A stretch of 64,000 bases of DNA from Parcubacteria group bacterium GW2011_GWC1_45_14 (GTDB lineage Bacteria; Patescibacteriota; Minisyncoccia; Moranbacterales; GWC2-37-73): assembly GCA_001001345.1 (NCBI GenBank), contig LCKI01000003.1, positions 4,614 to 68,613 of the forward strand, given 5' to 3'. The notes under the pieces are model-generated. The model did no database searches. It was not told the origin of the DNA and worked only from the letters and a program-made list of their open reading frames with translations. Both the position numbers and the translations under genes were made by a program. Below, one piece after another: positions 1-10,338 of this stretch. Position 1 is the stretch's first letter. Every line of letters begins with the position of its first letter.

Positions 1-90
1 ACGCTGATCACCGATCAATACGGATTCCACGGATTAAATCCGTGATCCGTGCAAATCAGTCCATCATCCGTGAATATCCGCAATTGAAAT

Positions 91-297
91 ATGGAAAAGA
101 AATCTTGTTTTTTCTGCGAAGAAAAAATGGAAAAAATAGACTACAAGGAAGCTTATATGCTCAGGAGATTCATGAATTCCCAGGGTAAGATCTATCCTCC
201 GAAAAGACACGGTACCTGCACAAGGCATCAGAGAGCTCTCGTCAGCGCGATCAAAAGAGCCCGCGTCATGGCTCTGGTACCATACGTAGTCAAATAA
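91..297 (+). CDS. rpsR: 30S ribosomal protein S18
   Basis: 68 aa. The '[28 protein letters not shown]' segment matches the conserved S18 core. Confidence 0.9.
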
Positions 298-396
298 CAC
301 GCGATACGAACGATACGAATCGCATACGAACGATACGAAACAGAAACACAAGTTCGTAGCGTTCGTATATGTTCGTAGGTTAGTATCGATTTATAT
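298..396. repeat. Array of 4x ATACGAA(C) direct repeats followed by 3x GTTCGTA, the inverse orientation, filling the rpsR-efp intergenic region
   Basis: Read directly from the sequence: gatacgaac gatacgaat cg catacgaac gatacgaaa ... gttcgtagc gttcgtatat gttcgtagg. Confidence 0.6.
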
Positions 397-954
397 ATGC
401 TGAATATAAACGAAATAAAAAACGGCAAGAACATCCTCTGGAACGAAGAGCCTTTCGTGGTGCTTTCTTCCCAGCATTCCAAGACCGGAAGAGCCGGAGC
501 AGTGCTTCGAACCAAGCTCAAGAACCTCATCACCGGAGCGATGATCGACAAAACCTTCCAGGGTTCCGACAAAGTGGAAGAGGCCGATATCTCCAAGTCC
601 AAAGCGCAATACCTCTACCAAGAGGGAGACGCATACAACTTCATGGATACCGCCACTTACGACCAATTTTCCCTTTCAAAAGACGTGATCGGTGATTTGG
701 CTCTCTGGATGATCGAAGGGACGGAAGTGACGGTTTCAAACTTCAACTCCAACCCGGTCAACATTGAGCTTCCGGTCAAAGTCACTCTCACTGTCGTCGA
801 TGCCCCTCCGGGAATCAAAGGAGACACGGCTTCCAGCGGAGACAAACTTGTTACCCTGGAAACAGGAGCGAAGGTTACCACCCCGCTTTTCGTGGAAACG
901 GGAGACAAGATAATCGTGAACACGGAAACAGGAACATACGTTTCAAGAGCGTAA
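397..954 (+). CDS. efp: Translation elongation factor P
   Basis: 185 aa with EF-P hallmarks: N-terminal KOW-like 'KNGKNILWNEEPFVVL' and the C-terminal 'KGDTASSGDKLVTLETGAKVTTPLFVETGDKIIVNTETGTYVSRA'. Confidence 0.9.
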   Translation: MLNINEIKNGKNILWNEEPFVVLSSQHSKTGRAGAVLRTKLKNLITGAMIDKTFQGSDKVEEADISKSKAQYLYQEGDAYNFMDTATYDQFSLSKDVIGDLALWMIEGTEVTVSNFNSNPVNIELPVKVTLTVVDAPPGIKGDTASSGDKLVTLETGAKVTTPLFVETGDKIIVNTETGTYVSRA

Positions 955-985
955 GGGCAGTTTTTTAGGAAAATACGCTACACAC

Positions 986-1010
986 AAAAACCGCGCGAAG
1001 CGGTTTTTTG
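986..1010 (+). terminator. Rho-independent terminator of efp
   Basis: aaccgc-gcgaa-gcggtt hairpin followed by a TTTTTT run. Confidence 0.6.
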
Positions 1011-1068
1011 TTGTTCTTAATTAGTACGGTGGATAAATTTGGAATTTTATACTAAGATGCATATTTCA

Positions 1069-1198
1069 TTTGTCATCTTGAGCGAAGTGATTCCGCCCTT
1101 AGGCGGGGAACGTAGTCGAAAGATCTACGCGATAATACAGCTTGACGTGTTATAACGCAGATTTTTCGACTTCGCTACGCTCCGCTCAAGATGACAAA
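1069..1198. other. About 130-nt imperfect palindrome or structured element between efp and the DGR RT 3' end
   Basis: The 16-bp outer arms tttgtcatcttgagcg / cgctcaagatgacaaa enclose nested hairpins (ccgccc tta ggcggg; cgtag tcgaaagat ctacg). No flanking T-run, so it is not a canonical terminator. Confidence 0.4.
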
Positions 1199-1212
1199 AA
1201 TCGACACATTAA

Positions 1213-2085
1213 TCAACAGGTGGCCGATTTTTTGACGCTTTCTTCCAATTTCTTCGCATTTCCGTGACTCAGCAATCCCAAATAAGACTGTATCGTCTCA
1301 TTTTTTGGATTTTTCGTAATATTCTTCATCATTCTTCTCTTCGTGCTGGTCCGCAATATCCTGTGATGCGGGAAATGCACCCATCCCAGAAAATCAACTC
1401 CCGAAGCGTACGTCTTTATGAAGACCTTATCCGGATGAAGCGTGAGTTTCAATCTTGTTTCCAAGAAATCACTTATTTTCGGCAAAACATTTTCCAAGTA
1501 TGCCATATCGTCATGCAGAATTACAAAATCATCCGCATATCGTATATAGTGGCGGATTTTTAATTGGCGTTTCGCAAATTGGTCGAACTCATTCATATAG
1601 ATGTTCACCAGGAGTTGCGAAGTCAGATTGCCGAGCGGTAGCCCGATTCCTATTTTTCCGTTAAAACTTTCTATGACTTGCGAAAGGAGCCGTAAAACAT
1701 CCCTATCTCCGATACGTTTCGATAAGATGACTCTTAAGATACTGTGATCTATGCTTGCGAAGAATTTCCTGATGTCGCATTTCAAAACCCAACACGTCTG
1801 GGTATTATTCCTTGAAACCTTGAGACTGAAACATTGAAAACGATCCATGGCCCTATGCGTGCCTTTATCTAACCTACAGGAATATGAGTCATGGATGAAT
1901 TTCCTGTCAAAATGCGGATACAGGATCCGATGAATGGCGTGATGGAGCAGGCGGTCGCGCACGCTCGCTTTATGGATGTCGCGCGGTTTGGGATCGTTTA
2001 TCTTGAAAGCTTTATAACCTCCGTGCCGGTATGTTTTATCCGCAAGTTCGCGGTGAAGCGCGAGGATGTTGTCCATGAAATGCAC
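1213..2085 (-). CDS. DGR-type reverse transcriptase. The annotated ORF starts at GTG 2085, but the conserved N-terminus continues in-frame upstream to 2253.
   Basis: RT motifs are present: 'LKCDIRKFFASIDH', the DGR-specific 'GLPLGNLTSQLLVNIY' (an IGxxxSQ variant) and 'YIRYADDFVIL'. The same frame is open upstream through 'IYDNIISFDNLLISWREFLRGKRKRKDVAEFQ', which resembles the N-terminal region of the Bordetella phage bRT. Confidence 0.85.
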   Translation of the reverse strand: MHFMDNILALHRELADKTYRHGGYKAFKINDPKPRDIHKASVRDRLLHHAIHRILYPHFDRKFIHDSYSCRLDKGTHRAMDRFQCFSLKVSRNNTQTCWVLKCDIRKFFASIDHSILRVILSKRIGDRDVLRLLSQVIESFNGKIGIGLPLGNLTSQLLVNIYMNEFDQFAKRQLKIRHYIRYADDFVILHDDMAYLENVLPKISDFLETRLKLTLHPDKVFIKTYASGVDFLGWVHFPHHRILRTSTKRRMMKNITKNPKNETIQSYLGLLSHGNAKKLEESVKKSATC

Positions 2086-2200
2086 CTGGAATTCGGCGAC
2101 GTCTTTCCGTTTCCTTTTTCCACGTAAAAATTCCCGCCAAGAAATTAGCAGGTTATCGAAAGAAATGATATTATCGTATATATGAAAAAGACTCCCTTTA

Positions 2201-2226
2201 CTCTCTCTCTCTCTCTCTCTCTCTCT
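2201..2226. repeat. (CT)13 dinucleotide microsatellite, which is (GA)13 on the RT coding strand
   Basis: Perfect ctctct... run. It lies inside the open upstream extension of the RT frame, where it translates as (ER)n. Confidence 0.95.
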
Positions 2227-2267
2227 CGAAAAATGCCTCTGTTCTCCAGCGGATCAAAGAGGGATAT

Positions 2268-2618
2268 TTGATTTGGATGGATGTTTCCGTTCATATTCCT
2301 AAAAGTGCGCGCTATACTATCGGCGCAAGGATTGAAAATAAATATCTTGATCTGCTTGAACTTGCCCGCGTCGCCTACTTCACTGGCAGAGAAGAAACCG
2401 AAAATAAAATCAAGAGAATATCGGACTGCATCTTCGTTTTGGACGCCTTGAAATTTTTGGTAACCGTAGCTTGGGAAGCCAAACTGCTTTCAAACAAACA
2501 CTACGAAAACGTGGGACTGAAACTGGAAGAAATCGGCAGGATGCTTTGGGGTTGGATGGAGGGATTGAAAAACCCTGAAAAGAAAAACCGCGCCTTTGAC
2601 GGAACGGAAAAGAAATGA
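2268..2618 (+). CDS. avd: DGR accessory variability determinant (Avd-like four-helix-bundle protein, 23S rRNA IVS protein family). The likely true start is ATG 2277.
   Basis: About 113 aa. 'KSARYTIGARIENKYLDLLELARVAY...LDALKFLVTVAWEAKLLSNKHYENVGLKLEEIGRMLWGW' fits the Avd/IVS four-helix-bundle signature. It is adjacent to the TR and RT. Confidence 0.7.
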   Translation: MIWMDVSVHIPKSARYTIGARIENKYLDLLELARVAYFTGREETENKIKRISDCIFVLDALKFLVTVAWEAKLLSNKHYENVGLKLEEIGRMLWGWMEGLKNPEKKNRAFDGTEKK

Positions 2619-2754
2619 CTTTCGGAAACGGAAGACAAACTCATTGTCGGCATTCCACCTATTGTCAGACTTCGCCCAGTTGTCGTTCAGCCACGACTTG
2701 CCGTCATTGTTCCGGTTCACGTTGAACACGTGCGGATTACCGTCAGAGTCGATT
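2618..2754 (-). repeat. DGR template repeat (TR)
   Basis: 137 bp, about 87% identical to 3082-3218. Every mismatch is a T on the + strand, which is an A on the minus (sense) strand, in this copy. On the minus strand it reads ...NRNNDGKSWLNDNWAKSDNRWNADNEFVFRFRK, rich in AAC codons. Confidence 0.88.
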
Positions 2755-3061
2755 CGTATGCAACGCCATCCATATCACTGCCCGCTCAAATTGGAGCTGT
2801 GCTGTATTTTATTCGGGATCTAAAATCCTCCAGCGTCGCATACCAAGTCTATTTTCTTTATTTTGAAAATATCGTTCCATATCACAAAAAGCCTTGGCCG
2901 TTTGCGCTTCGGGAACGTACTTGCAGAAAGGTTCCAAAAAGCCGTAACCGTTTGGCATGACCAATCTATTCTAAAGTATACCAAATTTTAAAGATTGGAA
3001 GAAATTCCAAAGGATCAAAAAGTCAAAAATTCAAAGTGACAGAATAAAATAATTCAAGGTT

Positions 3062-5005
3062 TCAAGATTCCAAAGAGTTTAACTTGCGGAAACGGAAGAC
3101 AAACTCATCGCCGGCACTCCACCTATCGTCAGACTCCGCCCAGTCGTCGCTCAGCCACGACTCGCCGTCACAGTACCGGTACACGAAGAACACGTGCGGA
3201 CTACCGTCAGAGTCGACAATCTGCTTCATAGCGATCCAAAAATAATCTCCAGGGGACTGCTGTCTGCCGAAAATATCCTCGTAATGGAGGCGCAGGTGAG
3301 GTCCTGTTTCCGGAGGGCACAGATCCAGCCCCAGTTCTTCGGCCCTTTTGTAAATTTGATCCGTTGTCGCTCCGGCGAGAAAACCTAAATCCTTAACCTT
3401 GAGTTTTACGAATTTGACCTGCTCCTTGTTTTCAAGTGTGAAAAATTCATCCCTTTTCAACATGGTTTCCACACCACTGGAAATATATATCTTATCATCC
3501 CCTTCCGCTTTCTTTCTGCTTTCCAGTTCTCTTATGATATTTTCCTTACTTTCCCCTCCCATCCAAGCATCGAATCCTGATATTTTTCCTTCGGGGAAAG
3601 AGGTGTGGATATGCTCGATTCCTTTTGAGAAAATTCCTTCAAAAAGCGGTCCGACATACGTCTTGGTGTTTTCATCGATGTCCTCTTTTTTCCAGGCAAT
3701 TTCAGAGGGATCACGTTCGAACACGACAGGCGCGTCTTCTTGCGCGATCCTTTGTTTCCTTAACTGCTCAATGCGTGGATCCTTATCATAGCCGAAACCT
3801 TCGATCGCATGGTTTATTTCATATAAAAATAATAAATCCTCTTTGGAAAAATGTTCGCCAATTTCCTGTTTCTTCACAAGCTCCGTCACTTTTTTCATAT
3901 CGGAAGCTTTCTTGTCATACGATTCCCCTCCGGGAAGCGAGTGGTACTTTTCCTGCGCGATATCCACCAGTTCCGGTTCGAGCTCCTGCCTGTGATTCAC
4001 TCCGCGCACTTCCCCGACCTTGTCTCCGTCCATACGGATAGCCACGCGCGGCTCGGTATATCCGCCGTTCTCTCCTTTCAGATAATACACATAGAAATCA
4101 CCGCCTTGGAGATGCGCTTGGGCGCTTCCGGTCGCCGTACACCATCCGGTTCCTTTATTTTTGAGATCGTTTTCCAGAATGTAATGATCGCTTCCTTGGT
4201 CATATTTCCTCCATTCCCCCTCGATCTTCTCACCGTTAAGTTCCATGGCTTTGCCGGCAGTTTCAACTAGCGCGAATGCGTACAGTTTCGAAAAATCTTT
4301 CGCATTGAGCAATTTTTCCAATGTATTTTTCTTTTCTGCAAGTTTCGTTTTTTCTTCATCCGATTGGCCTTCCCATGGCTCGAATTCTTTCTGGTCTATT
4401 CCCTCGTCGAGTTTTTTAAAAACCCAGCCCAACGCTTCGGAGTTGAGTTCCGGAAAAGGTGCGACTGTCGATTTCGCCCTCTTGGAAAATTCCAGAGTTT
4501 CCTTGCTCAATATTCCCATCTTCTCGATGCTCCGCATCACGAAATATCGGAACCACATCGGATGTTTCGAATCGTTCTGCTTCAGATAATCAAGCCACGC
4601 GGAAAGTGTCTTGCGCTGGATTTCGGCTTTTTCCATGACGAGCGGTTTGTATTTCTCGACAATCTCCTGCGTCGAACCGAACTTTTGGATATCCGCTCCA
4701 CGGCCCTGTTCGATTGCGATACGCTTTTCCGATTCATAAAGACCTTCCGCGATCTTCTCAAGCGTTTCAGGATTTTCCACATTCAAAGTAAAGCGGCTTA
4801 GAATGCGTCTTTTGAGAAGTTCGTATCCATGGTCATTCTCAACGATCGCCTCGAGACGGTCCAAATACGTATCCACCCGTTCCTGCTTGTTTTCAGGTCC
4901 CGGTTCCCCTTCGCGGAGATTTTTAGCCACCGCGCGTTCCACCGGCTTGGAGCCGGCAAGGTCGGGATATTTTTGAGGGAGAAAGTGTTTTTCCATATGA
5001 GGCAA
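3062..5005 (-). CDS. DGR target (variable) protein, 647 aa, with the VR at its C-terminus
   Basis: Long ORF whose last roughly 45 codons are the VR. There is no obvious N-terminal signal peptide. An extended -10 (TGgTATAAT) sits just upstream of the start. Confidence 0.8.
   Translation of the reverse strand: MPHMEKHFLPQKYPDLAGSKPVERAVAKNLREGEPGPENKQERVDTYLDRLEAIVENDHGYELLKRRILSRFTLNVENPETLEKIAEGLYESEKRIAIEQGRGADIQKFGSTQEIVEKYKPLVMEKAEIQRKTLSAWLDYLKQNDSKHPMWFRYFVMRSIEKMGILSKETLEFSKRAKSTVAPFPELNSEALGWVFKKLDEGIDQKEFEPWEGQSDEEKTKLAEKKNTLEKLLNAKDFSKLYAFALVETAGKAMELNGEKIEGEWRKYDQGSDHYILENDLKNKGTGWCTATGSAQAHLQGGDFYVYYLKGENGGYTEPRVAIRMDGDKVGEVRGVNHRQELEPELVDIAQEKYHSLPGGESYDKKASDMKKVTELVKKQEIGEHFSKEDLLFLYEINHAIEGFGYDKDPRIEQLRKQRIAQEDAPVVFERDPSEIAWKKEDIDENTKTYVGPLFEGIFSKGIEHIHTSFPEGKISGFDAWMGGESKENIIRELESRKKAEGDDKIYISSGVETMLKRDEFFTLENKEQVKFVKLKVKDLGFLAGATTDQIYKRAEELGLDLCPPETGPHLRLHYEDIFGRQQSPGDYFWIAMKQIVDSDGSPHVFFVYRYCDGESWLSDDWAESDDRWSAGDEFVFRFRKLNSLES
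3082..3218 (-). repeat. DGR variable repeat (VR), encoding the C-terminus of the target protein
   Basis: Homologous to the TR. It differs at about 18 positions, all corresponding to TR adenines. It encodes ...YRYCDGESWLSDDWAESDDRWSAGDEFVFRFRK. Confidence 0.88.
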
Positions 5006-5043
5006 TTATACCACAATTCACACAAGCTCTTCTGAATAAAAAC

Positions 5044-5070
5044 AAAAAACCGCACGAGGCGGTATTTTTG
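5044..5070 (-). terminator. Rho-independent terminator downstream of recA
   Basis: ccgc-acga-ggcgg hairpin with a T-run on the minus strand. Confidence 0.6.
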
Positions 5071-5074
5071 TTTC

Positions 5075-5105
5075 CCTGATTCCTGATTCCTGATTCCTGA
5101 TTCCT
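5075..5105. repeat. (CCTGATT)4.4 heptamer tandem repeat
   Basis: cctgatt x4 plus cct. It lies in the recA 3' UTR, which is also the region upstream of the DGR target gene. Confidence 0.9.
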
Positions 5106-5128
5106 AAAGCCTAAATCCTAATTCCTGC

Positions 5129-6145
5129 TTATATCTTGGCTTTGGCCGCAATTTCCTTAAAGATCTTTTGCGCGATCTTCTCATTTTCCCGAAGGAAAGT
5201 CTTGGCGGCCTCCCTGCCGACTCCCAATTTCACTTCCTCGAAGGTATATGAATTTCCTGATTTTTTGACAACCTCGAACTTCACTCCGGAATCAATGATG
5301 TCTCCGGCCAGCGAAATCCCCTCGTTATACATGATGTCGAATTCCGCGACTTTGAAAGGCGGAGCGACTTTGTTTTTGACGACTTTCACCTTCACCCTGT
5401 TGCCGACCACATCTTCGCCTTTCTTGATCTGGGCGGATCTTCTGACCTCAAGCCTGACCGAAGAATAAAACTTGAGAGCCTGCCCTCCGGAAGTGGTCTC
5501 AGGATTACCGAACATCACTCCGATCTTCATCCTGATCTGATTGATGAAAATGACGATGACATTGGACCTGGCGACGATGGCGGTGAGTTTTCGCAGGGCC
5601 TGGGACATGAGCCTGGCCTGCCTTCCTACATGCTGGTCTCCCATCTCTCCCTCGATTTCAGCTCTGGGAACCAAGGCGGCGACGGAGTCGATAACGACCA
5701 CGTCCACGGCGTTGGAGCGGACCAGCGTTTCCACGATGTCGAGCGCCTGTTCTCCCGTGTCCGGCTGGGAAACCAACAGGTCGTCGATTTTAACTCCGAT
5801 CTTCTTGGCATATTCCGGATCAAGAGCGTGTTCGGCATCCACGAAAGCCGAAGTCCCTCCTTTTTTCTGGGCGTTCGCGATGATGTGAAGCGCCAAGGTG
5901 GTCTTTCCGGATGACTCAGGTCCGTATACCTCGATTATCCTGCCCCTCGGCACTCCGCCGATTCCCAACGCGATATCCAAGGAAACCGAACCGGTCGGGA
6001 TCGACTCCACGTCGACCCTGCGGACATCCCCCAGCTTCATGATCATCCCCTCGCCGAACTTCTCCCGGATTTCACTCACCACGTTATCCACCTTCTTGTC
6101 ATCTGCGACCGCCCCTACTTCCGGCTTCGTTGTTTTCTTTGCCAT
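5129..6145 (-). CDS. recA: Recombinase RecA
   Basis: 338 aa. Walker A 'GPESSGKTT' and the canonical RecA core '[18 protein letters not shown]...[13 protein letters not shown]'. Confidence 0.97.
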
Positions 6146-6228: not shown

Positions 6229-7221
6229 TTATAAAGCGCGTCCATCGGGGGTGAAAACAATGTCGCGCACTACACCTGATTCGCTGCTTAAAATTTCTTC
6301 TTCCTTTCCTTCCAATTTTATATGGGTATCGTTTCCCTTTCCGGATGTCACGCTTATCTTCTCCTTGGCTGTGAACTTCTGCACCGAATCCGGAAGCAGG
6401 ACCCCGCTATACATCAAATTCCCATCAGCTTCGACTGAAATCCAAGTGGGATTGGATGAAACATAGAGCTCCATATCGAACTCCTCCTTGTTCCCAGCAT
6501 CTTCCCCCTCGGAAGCGCCCGCTCCGGAAGATGGGGATTCCACGTTCTGATAATTGGCGTTGACTGAAACGGTCTGCCTGGATTCCTTATCAAACTTGTT
6601 CCTGGCTACCACGGTTATGGCGTTGAGCCCTTCCCGAAGTCCCACATCCTCACTGAATTCTCCCTTCTCGTTGACCAAAATAGGCTGGTCGTTTATGAAA
6701 AGCTGGGCGTTTTTTTCCGCCACCCCTGCTATCCTGACGGTTCTTCCGTCCACACTGGACCCGTCGGACGGGGTCATGACGACCAATCTTGGCATGGAAA
6801 CGAAATTGTTGACCTGCCGGTATAAATACAGGAATCCCGAAAAAACGAACAGGACGCTCAATGTTATTATGATTATCTTGGGAGTCACCACGAAACTTGA
6901 AAACTTTATCGGCTTTATCTCCTTGTTGCCCGCATCTTCCCCTTTGATATTCTGCGCTATCTTCTGTTCCCTTTCGTATTGCTTGAGAAGCGACTGTCCG
7001 CTTATCCCCATGAAGATGGCATAGTTGCGGAGGAATCCTTTGACATAAACCTGTGCCGGAAGCTTGGAATAGTTCCCTTCCTCAAGATACTCCAGATATT
7101 TCACCTGCACGCGCGTGCTCTTGGAGATTTCACTCAAACTCAAACGGCGTTCCTCGCGAAGCTTTTTCATTTGCTCCCCAAGAGTCATCGAGTCTATCTT
7201 TTTCGTAGTGAATCGCACCAT
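6229..7221 (-). CDS. HTH (XRE-like) domain membrane protein, RodZ-like
   Basis: N-terminal 'LGEQMKKLREERRLSLSEISKSTRVQVKYLEYLE' HTH, a single TM segment, then a Ser/Gly-rich extracellular region. Confidence 0.55.
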   Translation of the reverse strand: MVRFTTKKIDSMTLGEQMKKLREERRLSLSEISKSTRVQVKYLEYLEEGNYSKLPAQVYVKGFLRNYAIFMGISGQSLLKQYEREQKIAQNIKGEDAGNKEIKPIKFSSFVVTPKIIIITLSVLFVFSGFLYLYRQVNNFVSMPRLVVMTPSDGSSVDGRTVRIAGVAEKNAQLFINDQPILVNEKGEFSEDVGLREGLNAITVVARNKFDKESRQTVSVNANYQNVESPSSGAGASEGEDAGNKEEFDMELYVSSNPTWISVEADGNLMYSGVLLPDSVQKFTAKEKISVTSGKGNDTHIKLEGKEEEILSSESGVVRDIVFTPDGRAL

Positions 7222-10295: not shown

Positions 10296-10338
10296 CTACG
10301 AATTACGAATTTTGTACGAATATACGAATGTACAAAAG
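10296..10338. promoter_or_regulatory. Operator-like repeat block upstream of lexA: 4x TACGAAT plus a TTTTGTAC-N12-GTACAAAA palindrome
   Basis: Read directly from the sequence, 10-50 nt upstream of the lexA start on the minus strand. Confidence 0.4.

Follow-up and report, generated by a model that had tools for sequence, protein, structure and literature searches.

The window, as we call the whole 64-kb stretch of DNA that was analysed, carries a diversity-generating retroelement (DGR) whose components follow one another on the minus strand in the order target gene (with the variable repeat, VR), template repeat (TR), inverted avd and reverse transcriptase (RT). The avd gene, located between TR and RT, is encoded on the other strand and diverges from RT. 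The features to which we refer throughout are these:

1213 to 2200, minus strand: RT body downstream of the tract, reading SKGSLF, His39 (CAT, 2184-2182) and then IYDNIISFDNLL..., with the stop codon TGA at 1215-1213.
2145 to 2147, minus strand: TAA that, in the rebuilt frames, closes the 49-aa RT stub from ATG 2294 at 13 units.
2145 to 2174, plus strand: promoter-like site recognised by its match to the consensus (TTAGCA, an 18-nt spacer, TG-TATTAT).
2182 to 2200, plus strand: 5' part of the avd ORF, ahead of the tract, with ATG 2182-2184 and the reading MKKTPFT; opposite this ATG, on the RT strand, is the His39 codon.
2201 to 2226, both strands: simple repeat common to both frames, (CT)13 on the plus and (AG)13 on the minus strand, followed by a C at 2227.
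2227 to 2294, minus strand: 5' part of the RT ORF, ahead of the tract, with ATG 2294-2292 followed by MNGNIHPNQISLFDPLENRGIF.
2227 to 2618, plus strand: avd body downstream of the tract, reading SKNAS-VLQRIKEGYLIWMDVSVHIPK..., with the stop codon at 2616-2618.
2269 to 2271, plus strand: TGA that, in the rebuilt frames, closes the 29-aa avd stub from ATG 2182 at 13 units.
About 2619 to 2753, minus strand: TR, from its alignment with VR.
About 3082 to 3217, minus strand: VR, at the 3' end of the target gene, from its alignment with TR.
3062 to 5005, minus strand: DGR target gene, a 647-aa ORF with no family match.

The RT is a reverse transcriptase of the DGR/group II intron-like type. It is matched by Pfam RVT_1 at 2e-22, 8000 homologs were found for it, and its best NCBIfam match, group_II_RT_mat, reaches 146.7 bits and thus stays under the equivalog cut-off of 300, as is expected of a non-intron RT. 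The protein contains LPLGNLTSQLLVNIY, and its SQ motif is one that we take to be typical of DGR RTs. The accessory protein Avd is recognised by Pfam bAvd with 51.2 bits (cut-off 40), and NCBIfam DivGenRetAVD scores 57.9 bits, under its equivalog cut-off of 80. VR lies within the last ~50 codons of the 647-aa target ORF, and the element is a genuine DGR since all TR/VR mismatches within the repeat fall at TR adenines. An Rfam scan of positions 1000-5300 gave no significant match. By exact matches of its proteins, the organism falls among Parcubacteria/Moranbacteria MAGs.

The (CT)13 tract is both the sole period-2 array and the sole long simple repeat in the 64-kb window; it is not there by chance. 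Its translation is (LS)n in the avd frame and (RE)n in the RT frame. The mechanically called RT ORF extends on the minus strand from GTG 2085, the first canonical start in the RT body, to 1213, and its frame remains open upstream to a TGA at 2254-2256; this upstream stretch reads ...SRERERERESKGSLFHIYDNIISFDNLLISWREFLRGKRKRKDVAEFQ, with ATG, GTG and TTG all absent. An ATG at 2294-2292 opens a 49-aa ORF (2145..2294) that reads MNGNIHPNQISLFDPLENRGIFRERERERERV... and is offset by 2 nt from the RT frame. An earlier reading of the letters of this DNA (hereafter the sequence-only reading) had already pointed to the tract at 2201-2226, to the open RT frame without a start and to ATG 2294 in the other frame, and all three are found in the sequence as described. 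It had also stated that the putative RT start would overlap the 5' end of avd in antisense. Indeed, the 5' coding ends of the two genes overlap head to head by 113 nt (2182-2294), the tract lies inside this overlap, and the codons of avd and RT within it are exactly aligned antisense to each other. The RT 5' segment is codon-aligned antisense to avd helix 1 and, at 13 units, out of frame with the RT body; ATG 2294 itself lies opposite the codon for the His of HIPK in avd.

We rebuilt the locus with 9-18 units and computed the frame outcome for each. With 12, 15 or 18 units, ATG 2294 is fused to RT to give proteins of 359, 361 and 363 aa, respectively, and an Avd protein of 144-148 aa is intact; the 12-unit outcome agrees with the forecast of the sequence-only reading that the loss of one CT would yield an RT of roughly 359 aa. 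With 13 or 16 units both ORFs abort, avd after 29 aa and RT after 49 aa; with 14 or 17 units the avd frame again ends early, and TTG 2253 is the one start from which RT can be read. For both ORFs to be in frame, the number of units must be a multiple of 3, and they come into frame at the same tract lengths because the upstream segments are codon-aligned antisense to each other. The window, with its 13 units, would consequently be OFF for both genes. Here our analysis goes beyond the sequence-only reading, which had considered the RT: ATG 2182 of avd lies past the tract as well, and we infer that both genes are gated together.

The RT annotation in GenBank varies with the tract. At 13 units, the annotated protein begins at an ATG further downstream and has 287 aa (KKT95167.1), the 14-unit form is called from a third-frame TTG (348 aa), and the 15-unit form is annotated in frame, with 361 aa (HAV11732.1); an in-frame allele of the kind that the sequence-only reading had envisaged thus exists. 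Gene callers systematically truncate or mis-start RT and avd in such cassettes. Some RT calls err in the other direction. In the P0052 cluster (Giovannonibacteria RTs, 474 aa) they are ~115 residues too long: the frame antisense to the whole of avd is open, an upstream ATG was chosen, and the conserved MRRNIHPKQISLFD start is internal.

Nine near-identical contigs with the same RT, from at least seven other assemblies and at 99.1-100% identity, allowed us to compare tract lengths directly. Thirteen units are present in the window and in contigs L003, L004 and L005, 14 units in L001 and L007, 15 units in L002 (GCA_003484185.1) and 16 units in L008. L006 holds an interrupted tract of 15 units, (AG)5TG(AG)9, at its positions 501-530, equivalent to window positions 2201-2226; the TG interruption makes a TGA in the RT frame, and avd, called with 146 aa, stays in frame. 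This allele may be partly locked and may, in addition, make the tract more stable. Among the contigs, those covering the entire cassette (window positions 1-5100, with RT, avd, TR, VR and target) differ from the window in tract length only, apart from one SNP at 509 in L004, and the short contigs add isolated changes at 1379 in L008, at 2462 in L006 and in an efp run at 651-702 in L007 and L008. Repeat number therefore differs among otherwise identical genomes, and in-frame and out-of-frame alleles coexist, with 13-16 units among them. This is the length heterogeneity that the sequence-only reading had expected of a phase-variable tract, although all of these length differences are differences between assembled consensus sequences.

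The few SNPs that separate the near-identical contigs are tightly clustered, at window positions 6607-6685, 6298-6359 and 651-702. Five of them, confined to 79 nt inside the gene upstream of recA, are common to L002, L004 and L005, and in L007 and L008 a ~50-nt segment of efp holds five to seven. Such clusters look like recombination patches or local variable segments.

A second species shows the same behaviour with another repeat. Six of its contigs carry G13 and two carry G14; they are otherwise identical but for a single mismatch in L192, and only the G14 contigs (L186 and L190) have a 136-aa avd call. Ten other RT clusters, formed at 90% identity, were inspected, and several hold members that differ in repeat count or in the upstream frame. 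Short (AG)5-6 tracts in three other species showed no variation across 5, 2 and 9 contigs, which is the expected outcome given that the kinetics of slippage depend on tract length.

To place the tract in a wider context, 160 related loci were fetched from genome and metagenome collections, of which 136 are non-redundant. Wherever avd was found it diverges from RT, with its helix 1 at a distance of 33-120 nt from the RT N-terminus. A long simple repeat is present at the avd/RT junction in 123 of the 136 non-redundant loci, compared with two such repeats in 606 kb of flanking sequence. The motif changes with the lineage: poly-G of 7-13 nucleotides in 79 loci, (AG)5-21 in 52, (CTGG)9-10 in two, and (CT)10 and (GT)13 in one each. 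The window's own (CT)13, whose unit is not a multiple of three, lies inside both inferred ORFs and is long enough to be unstable, as in a contingency locus. That different motifs occupy one and the same position argues that it is the instability in length, and not a particular sequence, that is selected; these data hence suggest that length instability is the selected property of the junction repeat. Judged from these comparisons, the design is clade-wide and employs different repeat types, a point not contained in the sequence-only reading. Both exceptions in the flanking sequence are G10 tracts in a single locus (L072, positions 3403 and 5252), and they may mark further switchable genes or a second cassette.

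The relatives also bear on the nature of the RT sequence upstream of GTG 2085. The sequence-only reading had proposed that this stretch matches the N-termini of DGR RTs and had recommended a comparison with orthologous DGRs. Relatives at 65-73% identity begin with MRxNIxPNQISLFD...RG(RE)n and thus carry the same extension through an (AG)n tract, and the residues W54, F57, K61, D66 and F70 (in the numbering of the 361-aa protein) are invariant in 108 relatives. On the basis of these alignments, the stretch upstream of GTG 2085 is real RT sequence.

Several lines of evidence indicate that avd starts on the far side of the tract. The RT residue His39, located nine residues before (E/D)NLL (window positions 2184-2182), is encoded by CAT in 127 of 127 loci. 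Other His codons in these RTs are CAT in 59% of cases (1364 to 963; P~3e-30 against His39), and we conclude from this difference that what is conserved is the ATG on the avd strand at 2182-2184. From this ATG to the repeat, the avd-strand frame is open in 115 of 116 loci (59/59 in class I and 56/57 in class II, the two classes being defined below), whereas the other two antisense frames, which served as controls, are closed in 34-86%. The avd body offers as its earliest canonical in-frame starts TTG 2268 and ATG 2277, both inside helix 1, which is predicted from 2235 onward by a low-confidence, single-sequence AlphaFold model (pLDDT 55.8), and the NCBIfam Avd profile aligns from the V at 2241, its position 3. 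Since the profiles reach up to the tract and no canonical start is available between the tract and helix 1, the avd ORF should cross the repeat and, in all likelihood, reads MKKTPFT-(LS)n-SKNAS-VLQRIKEGY... from one side to the other. The promoter-like site at 2145..2174 ends 7 nt before ATG 2182, and the RT codons 43-44 that underlie it are partly conserved at synonymous sites; it may be the avd promoter and give rise to a leaderless mRNA. TTG 2268 is preceded by a good Shine-Dalgarno-like sequence, AAGAGGG, and a shorter Avd protein made from it in the OFF states, without most of helix 1, is possible.

For the RT start, two classes of loci have to be distinguished. Class I is the subclade that includes the window; in it, the avd His of HIPK is encoded by CAT, giving an ATG on the RT strand. 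In class II, RT possesses a separate ATG of its own, located 5-7 codons ahead of His39. An upstream ATG on the RT strand was found in all loci of the (AG)n class. Those avd Leu and Ser codons that would create a stop on the RT strand (TTA, CTA, TCA) are depleted in class I, where they account for 7 of 188 codons (3.7%) in the overlap versus 265 of 1127 (23.5%) in the rest of avd (p=2e-12), and this depletion holds in those class I loci that are currently out of frame (4/118). Class II shows no depletion of stop-creating avd codons (24% vs 25%). Likewise, 58 of 63 class I loci, versus 26 of 69 class II loci, have an open frame between the ATG and the repeat, and in 42 of 59 class I loci ATG, GTG and TTG are all absent between the repeat and His39. 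The conserved starts and the open frames, taken together, argue that both ORFs are really translated across the repeat. Which of the two frames dominates can also be read from the alignments: the variation in the extension (S/A/T/P, F/L) matches synonymous changes in avd, so that avd is the frame under selection at the protein level, and third-position entropy in the extension is only modestly reduced. No conserved ribosome-binding site was found before ATG 2294, where the third codon positions of avd vary freely.

Other possible starts and readings of the RT frame were considered and set aside. For 13 units, the sequence-only reading had left the choice between an RT that is off and an RT truncated to a start at GTG 2085. 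The former agrees with the predicted 49-aa stub; the latter was rejected, as a start at GTG 2085, or equally at ATG 2076, would cost the protein ~33 conserved residues. The ATA at 2181-2179, which follows GGGAG, was rejected as a near-cognate RT start that could serve as a general mechanism, this codon not being conserved in relatives. An alternative genetic code in which TGA specifies Gly was also rejected: reading past the TGA at 2254-2256 leads to a TAG without encountering a start, and the RT itself ends in TGA. The idea that the conserved N-terminal peptide is a mere mirror of avd helix 1 is partly true; the avoidance of stop codons and the conservation of the ATG, however, show that the antisense frame is kept open.

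The findings lend themselves to the following model. We consider it likely that the tract serves the DGR as a slipped-strand frame switch of the contingency type, so that the phase-variation reading first proposed from the letters of the sequence is supported by the comparison of loci. Replication slippage would flip the tract between its states reversibly and at a high rate. Translation of avd would start at ATG 2182 and that of RT at ATG 2294, and both would have to cross the tract; in the OFF states the resulting stubs of 29 and 49 aa would presumably be non-functional. Since the DGR of the Bordetella phage needs the Avd-RT complex for cDNA synthesis, OFF alleles should stop mutagenic retrohoming. 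The outcome would be a heritable yet reversible on/off state for targeted hypermutation.

Two observations do not speak for an advantage or a visible effect of the ON state. About one third of the loci are in frame (18/59 in class I and 16/57 in class II); in-frame alleles are thus not enriched across species, and as one third is the neutral expectation, nothing points to the ON state being favoured. Furthermore, VR showed no differences between ON and OFF alleles: it is identical in the window and in L002-L005, of which L002 is ON, in a comparison of consensus sequences in which minority variants are invisible. VR variation in the population, the mark of ongoing mutagenic retrohoming, was not seen in this consensus comparison, and with a single VR common to the ON and the OFF contigs, no sign was found that DGR activity follows the state of the tract. 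Slippage of RNA polymerase on long tracts could make OFF alleles leaky.

This last consideration leads to an explanation in which the tract acts at the level of RNA. Transcriptional slippage or ribosomal frameshifting would restore the frame in some of the transcripts, and the tract would then be an attenuator that keeps Avd and RT scarce rather than a heritable switch. The same overlap geometry fits such an attenuator, which moreover would account for in-frame alleles at chance level and for the one VR that is common to ON and OFF contigs. Long homopolymers are known to provoke RNA polymerase slippage, and many of the loci have runs of G8-G13. We nevertheless regard an RNA-level attenuator as unlikely: variation in length at the DNA level is clear, the tract is the sole variable site in the cassette, and slippage on dinucleotide (AG)n templates is, to our knowledge, not well established. 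Slippage at the RNA level and switching at the DNA level are in any case not mutually exclusive.

A second alternative takes the tract to be an untranslated spacer between divergent genes, the length of which tunes promoter geometry or the structure of the 5'-UTR, as does the (TA)n repeat of hifA/hifB; RT would then start at ATA 2181-2179 and avd at TTG 2268. A Shine-Dalgarno-like AAAGGGAG located 10 nt before ATA 2181, the AAGAGGG before TTG 2268, the promoter-like site that abuts the region and an in-frame fraction at chance are all compatible with such a spacer. However, RT codon 40, the ATA in question, encodes T, I or S in relatives and does so with many codons, and a start at TTG 2268 would remove most of the strongly conserved helix 1 of avd. 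A spacer also leaves unexplained why His39 is always CAT and why the frames on the far side of the tract are kept open specifically where they are needed. We therefore judge it to be very improbable.

That the frame break is an artefact, namely an assembly or polishing error in repeat length, or that the RT is a pseudogene in a dying DGR, has next to no probability in our view: dinucleotide repeats are error-prone in sequencing and the annotated RT (KKT95167.1) is truncated to 287 aa, but a count of 13 units was obtained independently in four assemblies stemming from different projects, which rules out the assembly error that the sequence-only reading had named as its main alternative, 14 units recur in two, RT, avd, TR and VR are without other lesions, and the arrangement is kept, with signatures of selection, across >120 species-level loci.

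The frame switch that we favour belongs, judging from its sequence features, to simple-repeat phase variation. Well-known contingency loci of this kind are the poly-G tracts of Campylobacter jejuni, the tetranucleotide repeats of the Haemophilus influenzae lic and mod genes and the poly-G tracts of meningococcal hmbR and hpuAB. As in these loci, a repeat whose unit is not a multiple of three lies near the 5' end of an ORF, its length shifts the reading frame, and different lengths coexist in natural populations. Unlike in these loci, a single repeat here is common to two ORFs of opposite orientation, what it would gate is a mutagenesis machine and not a surface structure or a methyltransferase, and the host is an uncultivated lineage of the Patescibacteria (CPR). 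With the DGR of Bordetella phage BPP-1 (mtd-avd-TR-brt), the cassette shares RT, Avd, adenine-specific TR/VR mismatches and a C-terminal VR in the target. The genes of BPP-1 are all co-oriented, whereas avd is inverted here, and we know of no repeat in the start regions of BPP-1 avd or brt.

As far as two genes under the control of one repeat are concerned, the closest precedent, going by what is cited of it, is hifA-hifB of H. influenzae, where the two divergent promoters are combined and contain a (TA)n tract (van Ham et al., 1993, cited in PMC11868660). In both systems one dinucleotide repeat between divergent genes controls both of them; according to the same source, however, the hif repeat lies outside coding sequence and acts by changing the distance from the -35 to the -10 promoter element, whereas our evidence points to translational frame control within overlapping coding 5' ends. 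With respect to gene order, the cassette corresponds to architecture B3, TR-(avd)-RT with an inverted avd, which Wu et al. (2018, PMC5758913) report in 90% of the DGRs of CPR bacteria. The B3 description in that study does not mention a repeat tract, overlapping starts or a dependence on reading frame (PMC5758913). In a full-text search of the accessible literature, to which the principal study of CPR DGRs (Paul et al., 2017) did not belong, no published description of a repeat-gated DGR was found, and a study of Bacteroides DGRs from 2024 states that the mechanisms controlling mutagenic retrohoming 'await discovery' (10.1101/2024.11.15.621889).

We are inclined to believe that in most CPR DGRs a single hypermutable repeat, placed in a head-to-head antisense overlap, forms a shared translational gate for avd and RT with a heritable and reversible ON/OFF state, and perhaps with a third state in which RT alone is made. 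If this holds true, a stochastic switch would sit atop a diversity generator, and this would be the first proposal of a concrete mechanism by which DGR activity is regulated. The gating of two divergent, overlapping ORFs by one repeat through their reading frames is apparently an undescribed design, and it would bear on the question of how cells restrain DGR mutagenesis. The tract would at the same time provide a marker for the ON or OFF state of DGR competence that is readable from sequence in those organisms in which DGRs are most abundant, so that activity states could be scored directly from metagenomic reads.

A few further observations concern the DNA around the tract. On the minus strand, TR and then the full avd gene in antisense (2619-2294) lie ahead of the RT start; a co-transcript of TR and RT would complement the avd mRNA over ~350 nt, and an interplay of sense and antisense RNAs is possible. 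A terminator-like hairpin with a T-run is present on the minus strand at window positions 2133-2152, inside the 5' coding region of RT and just downstream of the end of the 49-aa OFF-state stub (TAA 2147-2145). Directly after the recA stop codon, on the minus strand, a heptanucleotide array, (AATCAGG)~7.6, occupies window positions 5075-5127; beyond it, and still upstream of the DGR target gene, come a terminator-like hairpin and a stretch that contains TATAAT. The array is unchanged among the near-identical contigs. A 9-nt array, (CGATACGAA)4, follows directly after the stop codon of the gene for ribosomal protein S18 (302-339), and repeats of the TACGAAT type occur again at 10297-10333; they may represent a lineage-specific family of intergenic repeats.
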